From: Escherichia phage vB_EcoS_OddieOddie
Sequence record: OL539454.1
Direction: 5' to 3' (one strand)
DNA: 59,985 nucleotides
Shown here: positions 18,283 through 39,780 of the stretch, piece after piece
Position numbering within the stretch: position 1 is the first letter of the stretch
Layout of the letters: the number at the start of each line of letters is the position of its first letter
Notes under the pieces: generated by a model
Databases searched by the model: none
What the model was told of the DNA's origin: nothing
Seen by the model: the letters and a program-made list of their open reading frames with translations, nothing else
Made by a program: the position numbers and the translations under genes

Positions 18283-18310
18283 TTAACCCCTCAAACGAGG
18301 GGTTAATTTT
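18283..18310. terminator. bidirectional terminator between convergent genes
   Basis: TTAACCCCTC-AAAC-GAGGGGTTAA 10-bp stem with TTTT downstream and A-run upstream. Confidence 0.6.
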
Positions 18311-18543
18311 CAATAATCAATCACACAGTTTGAAGGTGAGCCAATTCGTCGGTATTCATGATCAATCTCATGGCACCATTGCCCAGTCATTGGAAGCTTT
18401 TCGGTATCATAAATCAAAGAACCGTTACCATCACGATCTAACGGTTTTGGAATAACGCCGGAATTAGGTTTACCAGTATTTAAACCGTTACCACATGCAG
18501 TGAGGGATAAAGTTAATGCCAGCATAGTTAAAGCGCGTTTCAT
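18310..18543 (-). CDS. small lipoprotein (candidate superinfection-exclusion factor)
   Basis: 77-aa minus-strand ORF inside the plus-strand tail module; N-terminal signal peptide with lipobox-like LTAC, then G/N/D-rich mature part. Confidence 0.55.
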   Translation of the reverse strand: MKRALTMLALTLSLTACGNGLNTGKPNSGVIPKPLDRDGNGSLIYDTEKLPMTGQWCHEIDHEYRRIGSPSNCVIDY

Positions 18544-18613: not shown

Positions 18614-21600
18614 GTGGGAGATATTATGGCAACTCGTTTACGTGGTACTTTAGTTGATGGTTTAAATAAACCAATTGTCAACGCTACAGTTGCACTTTTA
18701 GCGAAAGGGAATAGCTTATTGGTATTGTCCGGTAGTGAAGCTATCTTTAAAACAAGCGCAACCGGAACATATGATATTACAGTCCAAACAGGCTATTACA
18801 AGGTTATTATCGGTCCGCAAGGTAGCGAGCCTTATAAAGCTGGTGAAATTGCTATTTACGCGGACAGTAAAGAAGGTACGCTCAATAACTATTTAACTTC
18901 CTGGGCACCGGAAGAGCTAACTCCGGAAGTCATTGCACAGGTTAAAGATTTAGTTTCACAAGCTGAGACAGCTAAGAATGCTTCTGCTACATCTGCAACT
19001 AAATCCGAGCAAGAACGCGTTAAAGCAGAGACTGCGGCTCAGAATGCTGTAAACACTGCTAACGGTATGAAAGCTTCTATTGGTTTGACTACTGCACCAA
19101 GACATGTTGCAGATATTACAGTCAACCCGTCATCATTCTTGGGTTTTATACGGATTTTACGGTCTAGTACAGTAGGTTATCCGGATATTGCGTCCTCAGA
19201 AAACGTATTAGCCGGTTTTGTTTCCGCTATGGATGGAACCCCTGGATTTATAGGTGTTTTTGTTGGAGACATGACCGGGACTATATATAGCTATAGATGG
19301 ATCAAGGACGTTGGCGTTACATGGTGGAAGCAGGTTAACTATTCTACTGTCAACAGATATACCCAGCTAAACGCAGAAACTAATTTTACAAACCAATTAG
19401 GTAATGCAAAACTCCTCATAGATAATAATAAAGTTTGGGGGGCATATGACAATGAAAATAAACGCTTCATACCTCTAGCAATAGCTCAAGGTGGTACAGG
19501 GGCGCTCACAGACGCGGATGCTCGTACAAACTTAAGACTTGGTTCTAACGATACACCTCAATTCAGAAACCTTAATCTTGTTACAGTAGCAGACTCCGCA
19601 CAAGCGCCTTCCGGCATTGTGAGCGGTTATTTAAATAATAGCTCTGGAGTTCAAAGATGTCGCTACCGCATATATTCTGAAATAAGAGGCGACAATAAAG
19701 CGTGGTTAACCTTACACCTTCAATCAGACACAGCAACAAATAAATATGCTGGTCTAAGCGTTGATGGTAATTTTCAAATCAATGGAAATTTTATTGGTAA
19801 TGCTTTGCAGTTGTCAGACGCTCCAAATTCCAGGATTAATCTACAGTTAGATCGTTTTTATCAAAGTGCTAACGAAACGGTTATTTATACTCCGTCTCGT
19901 CAAGCATATATGACAATTTCTAATAACAAGACTTGGGGCGCTTATGACGCGGAAGCTCAAAACTTCATTCCTTTACCTATTAATAGGGGAGGGACTGGTG
20001 CCCTAACAATATCCGACGCTAAGACTAATCTTCAAATTCCGTCTGTAGGTGGGGGTGATTGGTTAACTTATAACGCTCCTCCTGGCGTGGAAGCTGGAAA
20101 GTATTATCCAGTTATCATCGATATGGCATACAGTTCTTTATATGCTTCTGGTGCTTTTATAGATATAAAGACACGTTCTGCCGCTGGTGACGACCCAATG
20201 AACTGTTGCACTTTTAACGGATTTATTAGATGTGGTGGTTGGAGCGACCGAAAAGACGGCGGTTATGGTTACTTCAACAACTATGCAAAAAATGAAATTG
20301 CTATGAAATGTATTCTTTCTTCATCTAAAGATGCGGAAAGATACGTTGCAATATATGTTGAAGGTCGTGGTTTCCCTCTTCAATTGCGTGTCCCTGCATT
20401 CTGTGAAGTAACAGTACCAACATCAAACTTTACTTATAAAAATACGACCTATGCGTGGGGTACAGCTAACCCTGCAACGGATTCTGTAGCTATAAACACC
20501 TTATTTGATTTTTCATTAAACCGCGTTGGTTTTTACCAGGCCACGACAGAAGGTAATTATTATATCGGAAATGGGGAACGTATTGTTTTATCTAACGGAA
20601 TGTCTGTGGGCGAAGAGTTAAGTCTAACCACACCTAAAGTGTCTTTCAGTGGAACCATTGCTGCTGGTAACGGTGTCATTGCAGATGGAACATCTGTATC
20701 CAATGCTACTTTTTATAGTCGTTATCGTGTTGGTGACGTGATATATGACAGCGAGTTTCGCGCAAGTGAAAATGCTGGTCAAATTATAGTCCGCGATCCA
20801 ACGGGTGGGACTGCGCATCAATTCTTTAACTTCAATCTCAACGGGACATTCAGCGCTCCCGCTGGTTTGCTATCTTCTACTGGAGTAGATTGGAACGGTC
20901 AGATTAATACCGTCAATAAATTCTATGGGATTGCTGGACAAGTTAACACACCAGAAAACAATGTGGTTTATGGTGGTATACATGTTGGATTCAGCGGCAA
21001 CTATGCTTTCCAGATATGCGGAAGGAAAGGTAAATCCTTCTTCCGCACATTTGAAGCAGGAGTAGAAGGACAATGGCAACAATTAGTAACTAAAGGGAAC
21101 TACGGAGTTGGTCTAATTGGAACTTTTAAACCGGAAGATGGTTCAAGTGGTTTTTACACTGATTCCGATGGGGCAAATACTTGGTCGCCCGCTAACGGAG
21201 GGGGTTTTCAATCTTCGTATACTCAGCAGCGAATATTCCAATTTTGGATGACATCAAGCTCGCAGGGGTTTATTCGTTTTAACGATAGCGGTAACGCTCA
21301 AGCTTCTAAGACGGATAAACCTTGGACAACACTTCAAGCAGCTGGCACATCGGATATTAATTTCAAGCGTGTTCACGGAGTGATGGATACAGATGTTGCA
21401 TTGGATAACATAAGCAAGCTTGAATTTGTATACTTTAACTATCTGTCCGATGGTCCAGAGCGTGAAATCCGTAGGGGTGTCATTGCTCAACAGGCCCAGG
21501 AAGTTGATCCTGAATATGTGCATAGTGCTGAAACATCCGGGAAAATGACTTTGGATTCTAACCCATTGTTATTGGATGCATTAGCTGCAATACAATCCCT

Positions 21601-21712
21601 CAAGAAAAAGGATCAAGATAATAAAGACCGTATTAGTAAACTTGAAACTGAAGTTGAGGAACTTAAGACGTTAGTTGCTACGCTTGTTAATAAAGAGCAA
21701 CCATTACCATAA
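18614..21712 (+). CDS. tail fibre protein with C-terminal intramolecular chaperone-like domain
   Basis: 1032-aa ORF; two internal copies of a WGAYD...FIPL...GGTGALT...A(R/K)TNL motif; C-terminus has SDINFKR ... GVIAQQAQEVDPEYV followed by coiled coil. Confidence 0.65.
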   Translation: MGDIMATRLRGTLVDGLNKPIVNATVALLAKGNSLLVLSGSEAIFKTSATGTYDITVQTGYYKVIIGPQGSEPYKAGEIAIYADSKEGTLNNYLTSWAPEELTPEVIAQVKDLVSQAETAKNASATSATKSEQERVKAETAAQNAVNTANGMKASIGLTTAPRHVADITVNPSSFLGFIRILRSSTVGYPDIASSENVLAGFVSAMDGTPGFIGVFVGDMTGTIYSYRWIKDVGVTWWKQVNYSTVNRYTQLNAETNFTNQLGNAKLLIDNNKVWGAYDNENKRFIPLAIAQGGTGALTDADARTNLRLGSNDTPQFRNLNLVTVADSAQAPSGIVSGYLNNSSGVQRCRYRIYSEIRGDNKAWLTLHLQSDTATNKYAGLSVDGNFQINGNFIGNALQLSDAPNSRINLQLDRFYQSANETVIYTPSRQAYMTISNNKTWGAYDAEAQNFIPLPINRGGTGALTISDAKTNLQIPSVGGGDWLTYNAPPGVEAGKYYPVIIDMAYSSLYASGAFIDIKTRSAAGDDPMNCCTFNGFIRCGGWSDRKDGGYGYFNNYAKNEIAMKCILSSSKDAERYVAIYVEGRGFPLQLRVPAFCEVTVPTSNFTYKNTTYAWGTANPATDSVAINTLFDFSLNRVGFYQATTEGNYYIGNGERIVLSNGMSVGEELSLTTPKVSFSGTIAAGNGVIADGTSVSNATFYSRYRVGDVIYDSEFRASENAGQIIVRDPTGGTAHQFFNFNLNGTFSAPAGLLSSTGVDWNGQINTVNKFYGIAGQVNTPENNVVYGGIHVGFSGNYAFQICGRKGKSFFRTFEAGVEGQWQQLVTKGNYGVGLIGTFKPEDGSSGFYTDSDGANTWSPANGGGFQSSYTQQRIFQFWMTSSSQGFIRFNDSGNAQASKTDKPWTTLQAAGTSDINFKRVHGVMDTDVALDNISKLEFVYFNYLSDGPEREIRRGVIAQQAQEVDPEYVHSAETSGKMTLDSNPLLLDALAAIQSLKKKDQDNKDRISKLETEVEELKTLVATLVNKEQPLP

Positions 21713-21729
21713 CCACATCTAACTTCAAC

Positions 21730-21754
21730 AGCGCGTCTTCGGGCGCGCTTTTTA
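21730..21754 (+). terminator. rho-independent terminator after tail fibre gene
   Basis: AGCGCG-TCTTCGGG-CGCGCT hairpin followed by TTTTTATT. Confidence 0.55.
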
Positions 21755-21808
21755 TTGGCTGTCAATCCCAATTTATAAAATCTTTACATATGGATCATTG
21801 TAAAAAGC

Positions 21809-22591
21809 ATGTTAAGGGGTATGCTTTACTTCGTAACCAGTTGGTTACATCCGCTTAACAAATCCATATATGGAGATTTTCCTATGTCTGACATGACTCT
21901 TTTACCTACTAATCTCGGTGGCGACGGTTTCGGTGGTGAAGCTGGTGCGGCTGGTATCGGTGGCGCGATCGGTGGTTTAATTGGTTCCTGGATCGGTAAT
22001 GGTTGGGGTGGCAATGGTGGTTGGGGTGGTCGCGGTAACTTCGCTGGTCCGGTAGAAGTGCAAGCTTCTGTTGACACCAACGCAATTCTGCAGGCTATCA
22101 ACAACGGTACTCTTCAGACCATTCAGGGGCAGAACGGTACTAACCTGACTGTTGAGCGCTCTGCTGCTTCTACCTATAACGGCATCACTCAGCAGAACAC
22201 TCAGAACCTGCTGGCTTCCGTTCAGGGCTTCGCTGGTCTGAACACGCAAATTCAGGGCGGCACCAGCCAAGTGCTCGCGGCTCTGTGTAGCAACGAAGCG
22301 GCTAACATTACCCGTTCTTTCCAGGCCCAGTTAGCAGCCGAGAAGTGTTGCTGCGAAACCAACCTGAACATCGAGCGTCAAGCTGAAGCTACCCGTGCGC
22401 TGATCCGTGACCAGCACGCACAGGCGCAAGCAGTTCTGATCTGTGACCTGAAATCTCAGTTGCAGGAAGCTCGCTTTGCAAACTCTCAGTTGGCACAAAC
22501 GGCTGGTCTTACTTGTAAGATCAATCAGGTTGAGCAGTTAGTTAACTTTAAACTGCCAACTCCTCCAACTCCTCCGACTGGCTGCTGCTAA
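21809..22591 (+). CDS. glycine-rich / glutamine-rich protein of unknown function
   Basis: 260-aa ORF (possible true start at 21884); Gly/Trp-rich block GGNGGWGGRG then Q/A/N/T-rich region, Cys cluster and C-terminal PTPPTPPTGCC; bounded by terminator-like hairpins. Confidence 0.45.
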   Translation: MLRGMLYFVTSWLHPLNKSIYGDFPMSDMTLLPTNLGGDGFGGEAGAAGIGGAIGGLIGSWIGNGWGGNGGWGGRGNFAGPVEVQASVDTNAILQAINNGTLQTIQGQNGTNLTVERSAASTYNGITQQNTQNLLASVQGFAGLNTQIQGGTSQVLAALCSNEAANITRSFQAQLAAEKCCCETNLNIERQAEATRALIRDQHAQAQAVLICDLKSQLQEARFANSQLAQTAGLTCKINQVEQLVNFKLPTPPTPPTGCC

Positions 22592-22613
22592 TCGTTGAAG
22601 TGTGGTTAAACTA

Positions 22614-22648
22614 AAGCGCCTTTCGCTCCTCCGCTTGGGGCGCTTTTA
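22614..22648 (+). terminator. possible terminator
   Basis: AAGCGCC ... GGCGCTT inverted repeat followed by TTTTAA; long loop, so weak. Confidence 0.3.
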
Positions 22649-22662
22649 ACAGAGGTACTATC

Positions 22663-23031
22663 ATGAGCCACATTAAATTCGCAACGATGGGAATGCCACG
22701 GGTCAAATTGCCTAAGGTTGCTTTACCTCGCATTAGCGTAGGTGAGCACCACCATGAGCATGAGAAAGAGGAATATAAACATGCTCACTCTTATGCTCGA
22801 GATCATGAACATATGGCAGCTATGTCAAATGTTCTTGACCGGATGGAAGAACCTCCGCATACGTGGGCGGCGTACCACGACAAGCCCGGCGGTATGATGT
22901 CCATTGTTGAAATGGAATACCGCGAATTAATGGAGTGTAAGAAAGAAGGCGACCGCGCAGGGATCATGAAAGAGTTGACTGATCTTGCCGCAGCTTGTAC
23001 TTGCGCTCTTCAAAAAATGAAAGATATGTAA
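22663..23031 (+). CDS. histidine-rich hypothetical protein
   Basis: 122-aa ORF with strong SD; His/Glu cluster VGEHHHEHEKEEYKHAHSYARDHEH. Confidence 0.45.
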   Translation: MSHIKFATMGMPRVKLPKVALPRISVGEHHHEHEKEEYKHAHSYARDHEHMAAMSNVLDRMEEPPHTWAAYHDKPGGMMSIVEMEYRELMECKKEGDRAGIMKELTDLAAACTCALQKMKDM

Positions 23032-23046
23032 GAATAGGAAGCCGAC

Positions 23047-23577
23047 ATGCAAAACGTAAACGCAGGAATGGGCGTAACCCAGTTCAACGGGATGAAACCG
23101 AAAAACTCCATCAACATGGGCGGTGTTGATTGGACGTTACGTCGGGACGCTACCGATTCAACTACCATGTTCCCACACCAGAAGGTTAGCTGGCTTAATG
23201 CTGGCTGTGAACCTATGGGTGATGGAAGGGTTCATTACTGTTGGATTATGGGAGTGATACCGCCTACGCCGGGCACTATCGAACGACCCGTGAATGTGAT
23301 GTATGTCGGCTTCCACCAGTTTAAAATCACGATCGCTCCAAACTCCATTAGTCAGTCTGATCTTGATCGTATGCACGTTTACGTCAGCGATGGTACAGAC
23401 TTTGCAGGTGATTTTATTAATAAGTTTCTTGGCGTGCAACCGGAGCAACCTGTAGAAGCCCGCGAACATATTAGTCCGTGGCCACCAATGATTGATCAGG
23501 AAGTGTTGCAGCCAAAGACCGCTCAAACGGTCCCTCAGAAACCGGAGCAGAAGGTAAAACCAAATGACGAAGAATGA
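23047..23577 (+). CDS. hypothetical protein
   Basis: 176-aa ORF in late arm. Confidence 0.45.
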   Translation: MQNVNAGMGVTQFNGMKPKNSINMGGVDWTLRRDATDSTTMFPHQKVSWLNAGCEPMGDGRVHYCWIMGVIPPTPGTIERPVNVMYVGFHQFKITIAPNSISQSDLDRMHVYVSDGTDFAGDFINKFLGVQPEQPVEAREHISPWPPMIDQEVLQPKTAQTVPQKPEQKVKPNDEE

Positions 23578-23848
23578 AGGTATTGATAACGTTGTTGAAG
23601 GACTTTCTATTCGTGCTCATGTTATAGTCGATGAAGGTCATGATCAACTTACTATTATGAAATCCGCATTCAGCGATTTCAAGTCGCTTGGAAACTTAAG
23701 CGGATTAATGACCGTGGTGTCAACCGGAAAATTAACCCAGCAGCAAATCAGTCTGGCTCAGCGTATTGCTGTTAAAGTTATTGCGGTACTTGGGATGATT
23801 GAAGCTGAAAAGCTCAGTTCCAAGCAGGATAACGAAAGCGACCTTTAA
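23564..23848 (+). CDS. hypothetical protein
   Basis: 94-aa ORF overlapping upstream stop. Confidence 0.4.
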   Translation: MTKNEGIDNVVEGLSIRAHVIVDEGHDQLTIMKSAFSDFKSLGNLSGLMTVVSTGKLTQQQISLAQRIAVKVIAVLGMIEAEKLSSKQDNESDL

Positions 23849-23859
23849 GGAGGTCTACA

Positions 23860-24063
23860 ATGTGTGGTAATACTAACCGTTGCTGTCTAGGCAGTCCTGC
23901 AACACAAGCAGGTATACTTCAGGGGCAATTGGCTCAAGCAGCGTGTAATTGCAAAACTTTTCAACCAGTAGCGCCAACTCCTGTTTTTGTGAATGGTTTT
24001 GCACCGCCTGTTTTCAATACTTTTGGCGTATACCCATATGGTGCTTTCTTTCGTATATTCTAA
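23860..24063 (+). CDS. small cysteine-containing hypothetical protein
   Basis: 67-aa ORF with SD AAGGAGG; last gene of rightward arm. Confidence 0.4.
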   Translation: MCGNTNRCCLGSPATQAGILQGQLAQAACNCKTFQPVAPTPVFVNGFAPPVFNTFGVYPYGAFFRIF

Positions 24064-24065
24064 GA

Positions 24066-24096
24066 AGAGAAAAGGGGCAAAAGCCCCTTTCTTTAA
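24066..24096. terminator. bidirectional terminator at convergence of the two arms
   Basis: AAAGGGGC-AAAA-GCCCCTTT hairpin flanked by A-run and T-run. Confidence 0.65.
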
Positions 24097-34457: not shown

Positions 34458-35270
34458 TTACAAGCCGTTCAGGGCTTCCGGTACTGGTACAGGTACGCGA
34501 CCAGTCACACCATTAAATTTCTTCCAGCGTGCATACTGGGTTTTAACAGTATCTTCGTTCAGACCGTGACGACCAGCCAGGTTCAGAACATAAGAGATCG
34601 GGGCAGGCTGACCCAGCGTAGCGCTAATCTGGTCCATCAGAGCCCAAGCACGACCGCAGGAAGTTTCCGGTTGCGGACGGCGAACACCGTTCTGTTCCGG
34701 CATACGATTAGCTTCTTTTTCTTTCTCGCGGAGCTCTTTAGCGCGTGCTTTTTCCGCTTCTTTTTCTGCCTGTTTTGCAGCACGGATCTTGTCTTTGAAG
34801 CCTTTAATAGTAGCTTCCAGACCATCCACCAGACCCTGAGCAGAAGTTACAGCACCGGACAGGTCTTCACCTTTAGACTTCTTAACGACAGCTTTCAGCT
34901 CTTTCAGAGCTTCTTTAATGGTCTTCAGGTTTGCAGATCCCTGAGTTTCTGCTTCCGTGATCTGTTCAACAGTGCTTTCGTCGGTGACGGTAGCCAAAGA
35001 GTTTTTCAGGATTTCAGCAGCGTTAGCAATCGCATTAAATTTGTTTTCCGCTTCAGTGCGGATTTCAGCTTGTTTCTTTTCAGCGGCAGCTTTTTTCTCT
35101 GCTTCTTTTTTCTCTTTTGCTACGCGTGCAGCTTCAGCGGCAGCGGCTTTCTTAGCTTCTGCATCATTCACAGTAGCTTCTTTCTTTGCAGGTTTAGCAG
35201 ATTTTGCAGCGGCGGCAGCAGCGGCTGCGGCAGCAGCTTTTTTGTCTTCAATGTTGCTCATTCTCTTCAC
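34458..35270 (-). CDS. Lys/Ala-rich low-complexity protein (histone-like DNA-binding candidate)
   Basis: 270-aa ORF with 12-residue poly-Ala run and K/A/E repeats, then a non-repetitive C-terminal domain. Confidence 0.45.
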   Translation of the reverse strand: MKRMSNIEDKKAAAAAAAAAAAKSAKPAKKEATVNDAEAKKAAAAEAARVAKEKKEAEKKAAAEKKQAEIRTEAENKFNAIANAAEILKNSLATVTDESTVEQITEAETQGSANLKTIKEALKELKAVVKKSKGEDLSGAVTSAQGLVDGLEATIKGFKDKIRAAKQAEKEAEKARAKELREKEKEANRMPEQNGVRRPQPETSCGRAWALMDQISATLGQPAPISYVLNLAGRHGLNEDTVKTQYARWKKFNGVTGRVPVPVPEALNGL

Positions 35271-38895: not shown

Positions 38896-39780
38896 TTACT
38901 GCTGCCACGGCGGGACTGCTGCTTGTGCCGGATGCGGTTCAGCTTGCTGCTGTGGCTGCGCTTGCTGCTGTGGTGCTGCTGCCTGGCCCGGCTGTGCTAC
39001 CTGCTGCGCCCACGGCTGCTGAGCTGCTTCCGGTGCTACTGGCTGTTGTACCGGAGCTTGCTGAACGGGCTGCTGCGGCGCTGCGTTTTGAGCAGGATTA
39101 TCCCACGGCTGCGGTGCTGCGTTCTGCCACGGTTGAGCTGCTGCGCCCTGCTGCGGTGCTGGTTGCTGCTGCACAGGTTGCTGAACTGGCTGCTGTTGCT
39201 GTACCGGAGCTTGCTGCTGTACAGGCGCTTGCTGTTGCTGAGCAAACGGGTTAGCTGCTGGCTGCTGTGGCGCTGCGCCCGGGAAAGTCGGTTGCTGTGC
39301 TGGCGCACCTGCACCAAACGGGTTAGCTACTGCTGGAGCACCCATTGATGGAGCCTCTGCTGCTTTTTCTGCATATTTAACCGGATCGTTGATGTTAGCG
39401 TAACCGTTAGGCTCGTTGCTGTCTTCATAACCTTCCTGAGAACGAACTTTCAGACGCAGGTTCAGCGGAATGTTATGCAATTGAGCAGGAGTATCCCAGC
39501 GAATTACACCAACTGCATGAGACAGAGCGCCCAGTTGCTCGTAAGCGATACGCACAGTATCTTCGTTGTCATTGATGACGTTATAACGAGCGAAGATTTT
39601 ACGACCTTTAGCAAAACCGTCAATGATGCTAAACGTTACCTGGATCGCCATACCGCCATTTTTGGTCGGTTTAAATTCAGATGCTTCAATTACTGCTTTA
39701 TACCAACCTTTCGGCAATGCGCCGTAAGAAGGTGCTTGATAGCTGCTCGCGTCAAAGTGGAAATTAGTTGGCATAGTCAT
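38896..39780 (-). CDS. putative ssDNA-binding protein with Gln/Pro/Ala-rich disordered tail
   Basis: 294-aa ORF; globular N-terminal domain then long QQQ/PVQQ/AP low-complexity region; upstream of a Sak4-like ATPase. Confidence 0.45.
   Translation of the reverse strand: MTMPTNFHFDASSYQAPSYGALPKGWYKAVIEASEFKPTKNGGMAIQVTFSIIDGFAKGRKIFARYNVINDNEDTVRIAYEQLGALSHAVGVIRWDTPAQLHNIPLNLRLKVRSQEGYEDSNEPNGYANINDPVKYAEKAAEAPSMGAPAVANPFGAGAPAQQPTFPGAAPQQPAANPFAQQQQAPVQQQAPVQQQQPVQQPVQQQPAPQQGAAAQPWQNAAPQPWDNPAQNAAPQQPVQQAPVQQPVAPEAAQQPWAQQVAQPGQAAAPQQQAQPQQQAEPHPAQAAVPPWQQ

Follow-up and report, generated by a model that had tools for sequence, protein, structure and literature searches.

Gene X, a conserved and strongly codon-adapted gene next to the lateral tail fibre gene of Seuratvirus coliphages and their relatives: a candidate envelope accessory protein

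In Escherichia phage vB_EcoS_OddieOddie (sequence record OL539454.1), whose DNA was analysed as one stretch of 59,985 nucleotides (the window), the lateral tail fibre gene is followed by a gene that will be called X in this work. Several described systems resemble X in part. With the morons (lom and bor of phage lambda, gp15 of HK97) it shares a promoter-like element, flanking hairpins of the terminator type (a strong one upstream and a weak one downstream), a deviating composition, a position just past the fibre genes and dispensability. The presence/absence pattern known from morons was also found, X being absent from phage 9g and deleted in phage VogelGryff, and its GC content is 0.55 as compared with about 0.40 in its neighbours. 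In contrast to morons, X occurs in virulent phages and its family is almost absent from bacterial genomes, and the benefit to a lysogen by which morons are recognized does not apply. Moreover, X is GC-richer and codon-optimised rather than AT-rich, it is conserved under purifying selection across several phage families, and it is the first gene of a four-gene cassette.

Other likenesses concern the protein. An N-terminal anchor, a Cys-bearing helix and a Pro-rich end are features of the two-component spanins Rz/Rz1. The X protein has an N-terminal membrane-type segment, a long predicted helix with cysteines, a Pro-rich end and a potential rod length close to the width of the periplasm, but it shows no sequence match to spanins, is not encoded in a lysis cassette, has no lipoprotein partner, and has an acidic N-terminus with the opposite charge bias. 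Influenza HA2, a class I viral fusion subunit, has a fusion peptide followed by a long helix. In the profile of the X family, a Gly/aromatic-rich segment together with the beginning of the helix aligns to its residues 4-75, although with E-values of only 0.03-0.7; in X 19 residues precede this segment, and there is no C-terminal anchor. The glycine-zipper lipoproteins SlyB, OsmB and Pcp contain a GxxxG-rich segment of similar composition, whereas X lacks a signal peptide and a lipobox (its first Cys is residue 133) and is unrelated in the rest of the protein. The phi29 protein p16.7 is an abundant, dispensable, membrane-anchored coiled-coil protein with an N-terminal anchor and a helical oligomerisation region. 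It can serve as a lead only, and no sequence relationship is expected. X has no recognizable DNA-binding domain and is acidic and Q/N/T-rich. Proteins of the Tfa/Caudo_TAP, T4 gp38 and gp57A types are, like X, encoded directly 3' of a tail fibre gene, but X matches none of these families.

It would be very surprising if X were a secreted glycine-rich toxin of the bacteriocin or microcin type. The N-terminal Gly/Ala-rich hydrophobic stretch may resemble class II microcins in composition, but a double-glycine leader was not found, no export or immunity genes are linked to X, the protein is 235 residues long with a long conserved helix, and the family is restricted to virulent phages. Taken together, the expression unit of X is moron-like and its architecture loosely resembles spanins, fusion peptides and glycine-zipper proteins, but it does not qualify as a member of any of these groups. 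The reading that we favour, while giving it somewhat less than an even chance, is that X encodes an abundant envelope or membrane accessory protein, which would not be a known tail fibre assembly protein and would probably not be a major virion protein.

Gene, family and loss in isolates

A 1-kb query around X retrieved Seuratvirus coliphages (Queuovirinae) with 95-98.5% identity (CSP1, RCIP0359, CAjan, slur01 and SeppeHuegi). The window thus belongs to a Seuratvirus coliphage, with an identity of about 98% to the first three of these phages. The gene and its translation start are as follows:

21884..22591, plus strand: gene X, 235 amino acids, PHROG 9288 (profile match, conservation, codon adaptation)
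21872..21875, plus strand: Shine-Dalgarno sequence GGAG, 8 nt 5' of ATG 21884 (read from the sequence)

A preliminary description of this DNA had delimited the gene as 21809-22591 on the plus strand. The open reading frame exists, but its start was placed 75 nt too far upstream. Translation probably begins at ATG 21884, because GGAG, a strong ribosome-binding site, precedes this codon by 8 nt, the homologues examined are 231-237 residues long and start with MSDMTL or a near variant, the X reading frame of phage JakobBernoulli has no extension upstream of the equivalent start, and the 25 extra codons (21809-21883) have a codon adaptation index (CAI) of 0.15 versus 0.56 for the remaining X codons. 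The sequence motifs listed in the same description were all found. Counting from the Met at 21884, the GGNGGWGGRG block occupies residues 42-51 (nt 22007-22036), the CCC cluster residues 155-157 (nt 22346-22354) and the C-terminal PTPPTPPTGCC residues 225-235 (nt 22556-22588); the Q/A/N/T-rich composition after the glycine block was also seen, with many G, A, Q, L, T and N residues in the protein (32, 29, 24, 22, 20 and 20, respectively, of 235). The GC content is 0.53-0.575 in X and 0.36-0.46 in the flanks.

The only family matched by the X protein was PHROG 9288, an uncharacterised phage protein family (E 3e-130; residues 1-235 against positions 1-233 of the 234-position profile). Distant relatives matched PHROG 9288 and PHROG 16490. 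Thus, the homology search that had been proposed as a check provided a family, but no characterised relative. No significant match was obtained when X alone was compared with Pfam, NCBIfam, PADLOC and the PDB sequences, and Pfam searches with ten distant homologues gave chance-level matches only. Homologous clusters numbered 170 in a word-indexed search and 467 in a profile search, none of them named and none with a Pfam domain; a profile search of 1.84 billion representatives yielded 116 X-family proteins, mostly of 200-290 residues. More than 100 phage genome records contain the gene under the label 'hypothetical protein', and a literature search on accessions, PHROG/VOG identifiers, phage glycine zippers and virion proteomes found nothing on X.

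Carriers of X were found in Seuratvirus, most Nonagvirus, Sashavirus, Drexlerviridae, T5-like Epseptimavirus and Yersinia vB_YenM phages, as well as among Hafnia, Edwardsiella and Aeromonas phages, and the carriers identified are virulent phages. Since 185,579 bacterial and archaeal species genomes gave just two weak matches (narrower alignment), both on contigs of metagenome-assembled genomes, the family is essentially confined to phages. Comparison of X with four close relatives gave proportions of nonsynonymous and synonymous differences (pN and pS) of 0.004-0.009 and 0.14-0.18, and a ratio of the corresponding rates (dN/dS) of 0.025-0.046. These values indicate that X is a real, functional gene under strong purifying selection. 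Features recognizable family-wide are an N-terminal M-x-x-M-x-L-x-P, a glycine zipper G(A/G)xxG(A/G)xxGSWFGNG(W/F)GG, one to four QGF(A/S)GLN repeats, CCC followed by xATRxL, LCDxK (which includes C187), SQxAQT and a T/A/S/P-rich tail. CCC and QGF are invariant or almost so.

Loss or disruption of X was observed in several isolates (related loci are cited by their L numbers where they must be told apart). In VogelGryff, a Seuratvirus of the BASEL collection (L064, 1426-2091), X is cut at about residue 182 and the remaining cassette is deleted, and in KurtStettler, another BASEL Seuratvirus (L065, 1520-3052), an in-frame deletion fuses the upstream S74 domain to residue 20 of X. SeppeHuegi (L002, 22120-22122) and Skure (L007, codon 83) share a CAG to TAG (amber) change at Q83, while JakobBernoulli, a member of the Drexlerviridae (L004, 5046-5048), has an independent CAA to TAA (ochre) change at the equivalent of Q81. 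The amber and ochre stops fall in one QGQ motif, and this clustering may be due to chance, to a hotspot or to selection for an 80-residue N-terminal fragment. For all five disrupted alleles, including the three with stop codons, the records list E. coli K-12 as host. In Nonagvirus 9g the whole cassette is absent, and a classical Tfa gene abuts the genome end, beside polymerase genes. At the one T5-like locus examined, that of Salmonella phage vaffelhjerte (L005, 5640-6513), the L-shaped tail fibre gene is followed by an X pseudogene, which is interrupted by several stops and has a degraded CCC motif; the upstream terminator, the promoter-like element, the hairpin and the ribosome-binding site are retained. 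Other T5-like matches cover residues 149-202 only and often lie in unannotated DNA.

When 29 loci on viral contigs were checked for stop codons, the frame was open in all but one, which had an N-terminal frameshift. These open frames, together with the disrupted isolates, show that X is maintained in nature, although phages that have lost it still form plaques on laboratory hosts and grow on laboratory E. coli. Two explanations of the disrupted alleles were considered and dropped. Programmed read-through of the Q81/Q83 stops does not fit the open frames of the viral-contig loci (apart from the single frameshift), and selection against X specific to K-12 is not claimed, as CAjan and other K-12 isolates appear intact by annotation and the copy in a T5-like phage isolated on Salmonella has decayed.

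Transcription signals and codon adaptation

The following elements were recognized around X:

21730..21757, plus strand: intrinsic terminator of the tail fibre transcript, stem 21730-21749 followed by a T-run
21798..21825, plus strand: candidate sigma-70-type promoter TTGTAA-16-TATGCT, 8 of 12 matches, below the threshold of the scan tool
21833..21848, plus strand: hairpin or palindrome GTAACCagttGGTTAC in the 5' untranslated region (5' UTR), supported by folding and by arms that covary between lineages
about 22613..22646, plus strand: downstream hairpin, 10-bp stem followed by UUUUAA, z = -0.7

The preliminary description had noted terminator-like hairpins on both sides of the gene. The upstream one is canonical: an 8-bp stem with six GC pairs and a 4-nt UUCG loop is followed by TTTTTATT, the minimum free energy (MFE) is -15.4 kcal/mol (z = -3.2), and none of 200 shuffled sequences was as stable. 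The downstream hairpin is weaker. Because of its 4-U tract, its ordinary folding energy and the lack of a call in a consensus terminator scan, it is better regarded as a probable leaky terminator or attenuator. In the record of the related phage SA126VB, terminators are annotated at the sites of both hairpins.

The 171-nt spacer between the stop codon of the fibre gene and the ATG of X holds the promoter-like pair and the 5' hairpin. A sigma-70-like pair of hexamers, located about 73-86 nt 5' of the ATG, is found in other lineages as well, with the near-consensus TTGTCA-16-TAGAAT (10/12 in relatives) at L022, L030 and L034, and the order of terminator, promoter-like pair and stem-loop before X recurs in lineages with little sequence identity. 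This arrangement suggests that X may be transcribed from a sigma-70-like promoter of its own behind the terminator. A host-type promoter of this kind would permit expression without phage factors.

When the 5' UTRs were aligned with MAFFT, no structure was predicted by RNAalifold, because the hairpins are out of register in the alignment; therefore, folding of each lineage separately and a shuffle test were used instead. By MFE folding a stem-loop is present at this site in nearly every lineage. Perfect stems of 5 bp or more were found in 16 of 17 lineages (range 5-8 bp), and stems of at least 6 bp in 11 of 17, as compared with 0.11 expected per shuffled window. The stem-loop lies 35-58 nt 5' of the start codon, right after the -10-like hexamer, and was seen at the same position at L004, L006, L010, L014, L022, L023, L026, L029, L030, L036, L066 and L068. 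The arms, often of the form GTRRC...GYYAC, differ between lineages yet remain complementary (GTAACA/TGTTGC, TGTAGTC/GACTACA, GTGGC/GCCAC, TCGTAGC/GCTACGG, GCGAAC/GTTCGC, GTAGC/GCTAC and GAGATGGC/GCTATCTC). The sequence at 21833-21848 is compatible with an RNA hairpin as well as with a DNA palindrome; it may stabilise the 5' end of the mRNA, provide a site for an RNase or serve as an operator. The palindrome GTAACCN4GGTTAC occurs in a single copy in the window and is not repeated elsewhere in it, thus the idea of a regulon gains no support.

With the E. coli codon weights of Sharp and Li, the CAI of X is 0.562, the second highest of the 145 open reading frames in the window and above that of the major capsid protein (0.549). 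The values for the tail fibre gene and for the four genes 3' of X are 0.246 and 0.28-0.32, respectively, and in five of five other lineages the X homologue has a higher CAI than the neighbouring p176 gene. Judged from codon usage, the X protein is probably made in very large amounts. Taking the leaky hairpin into account, we infer that most transcripts are short, abundant and confined to X, and that a fraction continues into the genes 3' of it. A 267-residue protein encoded at 34458-35261 on the minus strand has the highest CAI of the window (0.60); a 294-residue protein encoded at 38896-39780, also on the minus strand, has a CAI of 0.53 and Q/P/A-rich repeats (direct-repeat family D1) in its C-terminal half. 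Neither is annotated in relatives.

The suggestion that X forms a separate, moron-like unit agrees with the terminator, the promoter-like pair, the 5' hairpin, the distinct GC content and codon usage and the accessory nature of the gene. X is not, however, a lone oddity but heads a cassette of four genes.

Gene neighbourhood and the four-gene cassette

In the annotated relative SeppeHuegi the terminase, head and tail genes occupy the plus strand up to about 24 kb, the minus strand carries replication and 7-deazaguanine genes, and the annotation places a lysis cassette (endolysin, holin, i-spanin and o-spanin) at the far end of the genome. The genes and signals next to X in the window are:

18614..21712, plus strand: lateral tail fibre gene, 1032 amino acids, immediate upstream and conserved neighbour of X
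22663..23031, plus strand: p122, 122 amino acids, His-rich, all-alpha NTP-pyrophosphatase-like, cassette gene 2 (profile match to PDB 2p06)
23047..23577, plus strand: p176, 176 amino acids, cassette gene 3 (PHROG 8329; syntenic at 36 of 38 loci)
23564..23848, plus strand: p94, 94 amino acids, cassette gene 4 (syntenic at 37 of 38 loci)
23860..24063, plus strand: p67, small Cys-rich protein, 67 amino acids (PHROG 25697)
24070..24091, minus strand: terminator-like hairpin with a 9-bp stem at the convergent junction closing the plus-strand block

X is followed by p122, p176 and p94 in the same order at 37 of 38 related loci, p176 being missing at one of these. The pairing of X with the cassette is kept in relatives whose X is only 30-40% identical (vB_YenM_22, L041, L058 and L066), whereas at the T5-like locus X stands without partners. 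A profile of the p122 family, which follows X at 37 of the 38 loci and at the distant L041, L058 and L066, matched PDB entry 2p06 (AF_0060; E 9e-4), which we take to be a member of the all-alpha NTP pyrophosphatase superfamily; there was also a weak match to Pfam PRA-PH. p122 has an ExxE...ExxD pattern, of which the second motif is not kept in distant members, and a His-rich N-terminus. Its resemblance to pyrophosphatases gives the cassette a non-structural flavour. In p176, W, D, H, C, E and Y residues are found at invariant positions and the tail is acidic and rich in Pro; its family profile matched nothing in the PDB; p94 had no family match. The p67 protein, with CC and CNC motifs, a Q-rich stretch and a Pro/Phe-rich end, is encoded by the last gene of the plus-strand block and was found only in the nine closest loci, mostly of Seuratvirus. 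At the convergent junction that follows it, terminators on both strands are annotated in SA126VB. As a separate observation, PHROG 4128 ('tail fiber protein', 603 positions) matches two proteins of the window: its positions 1-548 correspond to the N-terminus of the lateral tail fibre protein, and its C-terminal end to the final 60 residues of p176. That one family matches both proteins suggests that, in some phages, deletion of all intervening DNA has fused fibre and p176.

The lateral tail fibre protein (18614-21712) matches Pfam phage_tail_N (E 1e-21) and Peptidase_S74 (E 1e-8) as well as PHROG tail fibre families; its N-terminus is of the prophage tail fibre type, and its C-terminus is an S74 intramolecular chaperone. 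At 22 of 35 loci a plus-strand gene upstream of X has an S74-type C-terminus. Its end lies 155-218 nt from X at 21 of 35 loci and 265-458 nt from X in Skure, and at the distant L066 (a 69-kb phage contig) it is found two genes upstream. The position of X directly 3' of the lateral tail fibre gene is common to Queuovirinae, Drexlerviridae, T5-like phages and one distant lineage. The fibre genes themselves vary completely between relatives while X stays conserved, so that X marks the conserved right-hand border of a hypervariable lateral tail fibre locus in several phage families. In vB_YenM_22 and the distant relatives L043 and L044 the neighbours of X are small early-type or nucleotide-metabolism genes and not fibre genes. 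On the other side of the fibre gene, between it and the gene of the J-like tail tip, a 77-residue protein with the lipobox LTLSLTAC, resembling Cor/Llp-type exclusion lipoproteins, is encoded on the minus strand (18310-18543); according to the BASEL paper this is where the receptor-binding-protein loci of small siphoviruses sit.

The position of X could suggest that it serves as a chaperone or assembly factor of the lateral tail fibre. X is annotated 'lateral tail fiber chaperone' in PJ16, the fused reading frame of KurtStettler is labelled 'putative lateral tail fiber chaperone', and X is dispensable on K-12, on which, as reported in the BASEL paper, lateral tail fibres are not needed. We nevertheless consider this role improbable. 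X is unlike any tail fibre assembly family (Caudo_TAP, gp38 and gp57A types) in Pfam, NCBIfam or the PDB, so that the ordinary assembly protein that the preliminary description had weighed as the alternative was not found. The upstream fibre has its own intramolecular S74 chaperone, X is conserved while the fibre genes are swapped, and 9g carries a classical Tfa without X. Furthermore, expression at the level of the capsid gene and a membrane-type N-terminus would be odd for a chaperone, as would the expression signals, and the KurtStettler label belongs to the upstream S74-domain protein in the fusion.

Predicted structure and proposed role

Four regions were distinguished in the X protein:

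N-terminal to residue 20, plus strand: acidic N-terminal tail, 19 residues before the glycine zipper, no signal peptide
21941..22036, plus strand: glycine zipper (residues 20-43) and GGNGGWGGRG (42-51), putative membrane-inserting region (hydropathy, distant homologues)
22079..22552, plus strand: single long alpha-helix predicted by AlphaFold2, residues 66-223, with QGxxGxN repeats, CCC (22346-22354) and C187
22556..22588, plus strand: Pro/Thr tail PTPPTPPTGCC ending in Cys-Cys, conserved in enterobacterial members

A first AlphaFold2 run with 19 close sequences gave low confidence. With an alignment of 40 sequences a helix was predicted for residues 66-223, with predicted local distance difference test (pLDDT) values of 84-97 at residues 131-220 and 51-56 at residues 71-120; residues 1-64 were of low confidence. 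Foldseek comparison of the model with BFVD and the PDB yielded nothing below E = 1 and was uninformative because the model is a single helix. No clean heptad pattern was seen in the helix, therefore a canonical coiled coil is not claimed. The terminal Cys of the tail is lineage-specific and missing in a subset of members, and distant members have T/A/S/P-rich tails.

At the position of the glycine zipper, distant relatives have a true hydrophobic helix (e.g. WMWWILIILFAFGGFG, GIWVILLFILLAGG and GMLVILFLILIMGFGG), and in four members of the family the Kyte-Doolittle (KD) hydropathy of this segment is at least 2.0. Some of these relatives have two CCC motifs. When the family profile was compared with all PDB entries, the top matches were influenza HA2 chains (fusion peptide and start of helix A), followed by the glycine zipper of SlyB; given the weak E-values this is a resemblance, not homology. 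No C-terminal hydrophobic segment was found in X. Thus the N-terminal segment of X looks like a membrane anchor.

These features can be combined in the following model of an abundant, membrane-type accessory protein. X would be expressed in bulk from its own sigma-70-type promoter, as a transcript whose 5' hairpin could make it more stable; the majority of transcripts would end at the leaky terminator 3' of X, and some would read on into p122, p176 and p94. After the short acidic N-tail, the glycine-zipper segment would insert into a membrane, followed by a Gly/Trp/Arg-rich linker, a helical rod of about 155 residues (about 23 nm if straight) and the Pro/Thr tail ending in Cys. The invariant CCC and the other cysteines could cross-link X copies or bind metal, and X might form an oligomeric, membrane-anchored rod at the envelope of the infected cell, acting together with the three partner proteins. 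Its role would matter in natural hosts but not in laboratory K-12; envelope protection or remodelling, superinfection exclusion and help in release are candidates.

Several observations weigh against this model. The most hydrophobic 19-mer of X itself (AGAAGIGGAIGGLIGSWIG; KD 1.27, Hessa sum +4.5) is only marginal as a transmembrane helix. The N-terminus, MSDMTLLPTNLGGDG, has neither a signal peptide nor basic character, and there is no Cys before residue 133. The profile matches to HA2 and SlyB are not significant (best E 0.03-0.08; 0.077 for SlyB). In 126 of 176 family members the flanking charges favour an N-out/C-in orientation, though by a small margin (on average 0.37 K/R and 2.24 D/E in the N-flank, and mostly one Arg in the C-flank), and such an orientation would place the Cys-rich helix in the reducing cytoplasm rather than in a periplasm-spanning, disulfide-linked rod. 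Finally, the polar, low-charge composition (N, Q, T, S, G, A) and the constant adjacency to fibre genes would suit a fibrous virion protein, and accessory adsorption organelles, too, are typically lost from laboratory stocks. The suggestion of the preliminary description that the protein might be secreted was not borne out, as neither a signal peptide nor a lipobox was detected and the N-terminus is acidic.

The charge bias leads to an alternative that we regard as unlikely, though worth keeping in mind: X would be anchored N-out/C-in with its helix in the cytoplasm, where, together with p122, it would provide a membrane scaffold or take part in counter-defence or host takeover, and CCC would bind metal instead of forming disulfides. 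The acidic N-tail and the Arg after the anchor, the tight cassette with the His-rich, NTP-pyrophosphatase-like p122, the putative host-type promoter, which would permit early expression, and the presence of distant relatives among nucleotide-metabolism genes are all consistent with this. However, the helix is charge-poor and Q/N/T-rich, unlike typical cytoplasmic coiled coils, the charge bias amounts mostly to one Arg, X matches no defence-related model, and there is no known partner or target.

The opposite topology would bring X closer to an accessory of lysis or release, i.e. a spanin- or fusion-peptide-like inner-membrane rod that perturbs or fuses the envelope at lysis, with a weakly hydrophobic, Gly/Ala-rich anchor of the signal-anchor-release type. 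We hold this to be improbable as well. It could account for the anchor, long Cys-bearing helix and Pro-rich end that echo Rz/Rz1, the resemblance to the HA2 fusion peptide and a helix of about 23 nm, near the width of the periplasm, and X would be dispensable if classical spanins were present. But in SeppeHuegi endolysin, holin and both spanins form a cassette of their own, X lies outside the lysis cassette at every locus seen, the acidic N-terminus, together with the charges that flank the anchor, speaks for N-out/C-in, and no embedded or adjacent lipoprotein partner was found.

A fibrous virion component is a more substantial, if still unlikely, alternative. X would form a coiled-coil fibre or whisker on the lateral fibre, neck or head, which helps adsorption in nature and is dispensable in the laboratory like T4 fibritin, the phi29 head fibres and the lambda side tail fibres. 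Besides the position 3' of the lateral fibre gene in four lineages and the fibre-like composition mentioned above, codon adaptation at the capsid level and the predicted long single helix fit such a component, the Cys-containing Pro/Thr tail could knot chains together after release, repeated loss in laboratory isolates parallels the loss of side fibres, and in KurtStettler a fibre chaperone domain is fused in frame to X. On the other hand, distant relatives have true transmembrane helices, X is not beside fibre genes in vB_YenM_22, L043 and L044, its partner p122 is enzyme-like, and a putative host-type promoter lies between X and the terminator upstream. In the CAjan record several genes are labelled 'structural protein' while the intact X is 'hypothetical', which counts indirectly against a virion role, the labels being assumed to come from virion proteomics; the 9g paper contains no proteomics. 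The earlier proposal that the product is fibre-associated has only the position of the gene next to the fibre gene in its favour.

If X is an envelope protein as favoured here, a bolder version can be proposed, to which we give a rather low probability: X and its relatives would represent a new class of envelope effectors, abundant rods with a fusion-peptide-like glycine zipper at one end and a Cys/Pro tail at the other, that together with p122 and the two other partners remodel, bridge or fuse host membranes in natural O-antigen hosts. If true, these effectors would have a function other than that of holins, spanins and the known superinfection-exclusion proteins, and several major families of virulent coliphages would have it in common.

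X occurs in phages that are often met in sewage and gut samples and that are part of widely used model collections such as BASEL. Judged by codon usage it is one of their most highly expressed genes, yet it has no name, domain or proposed role. With its function known, a visible gap in the gene maps of Seuratvirus, Nonagvirus and T1-like phages would be closed. For phage engineering, the X cassette may offer a safe site for deletions and insertions as long as K-12 is used, whereas phages growing on clinical hosts may depend on it. As to phage biology, virulent phages may act on the cell envelope by a mechanism not described before, and X could bring it to light.

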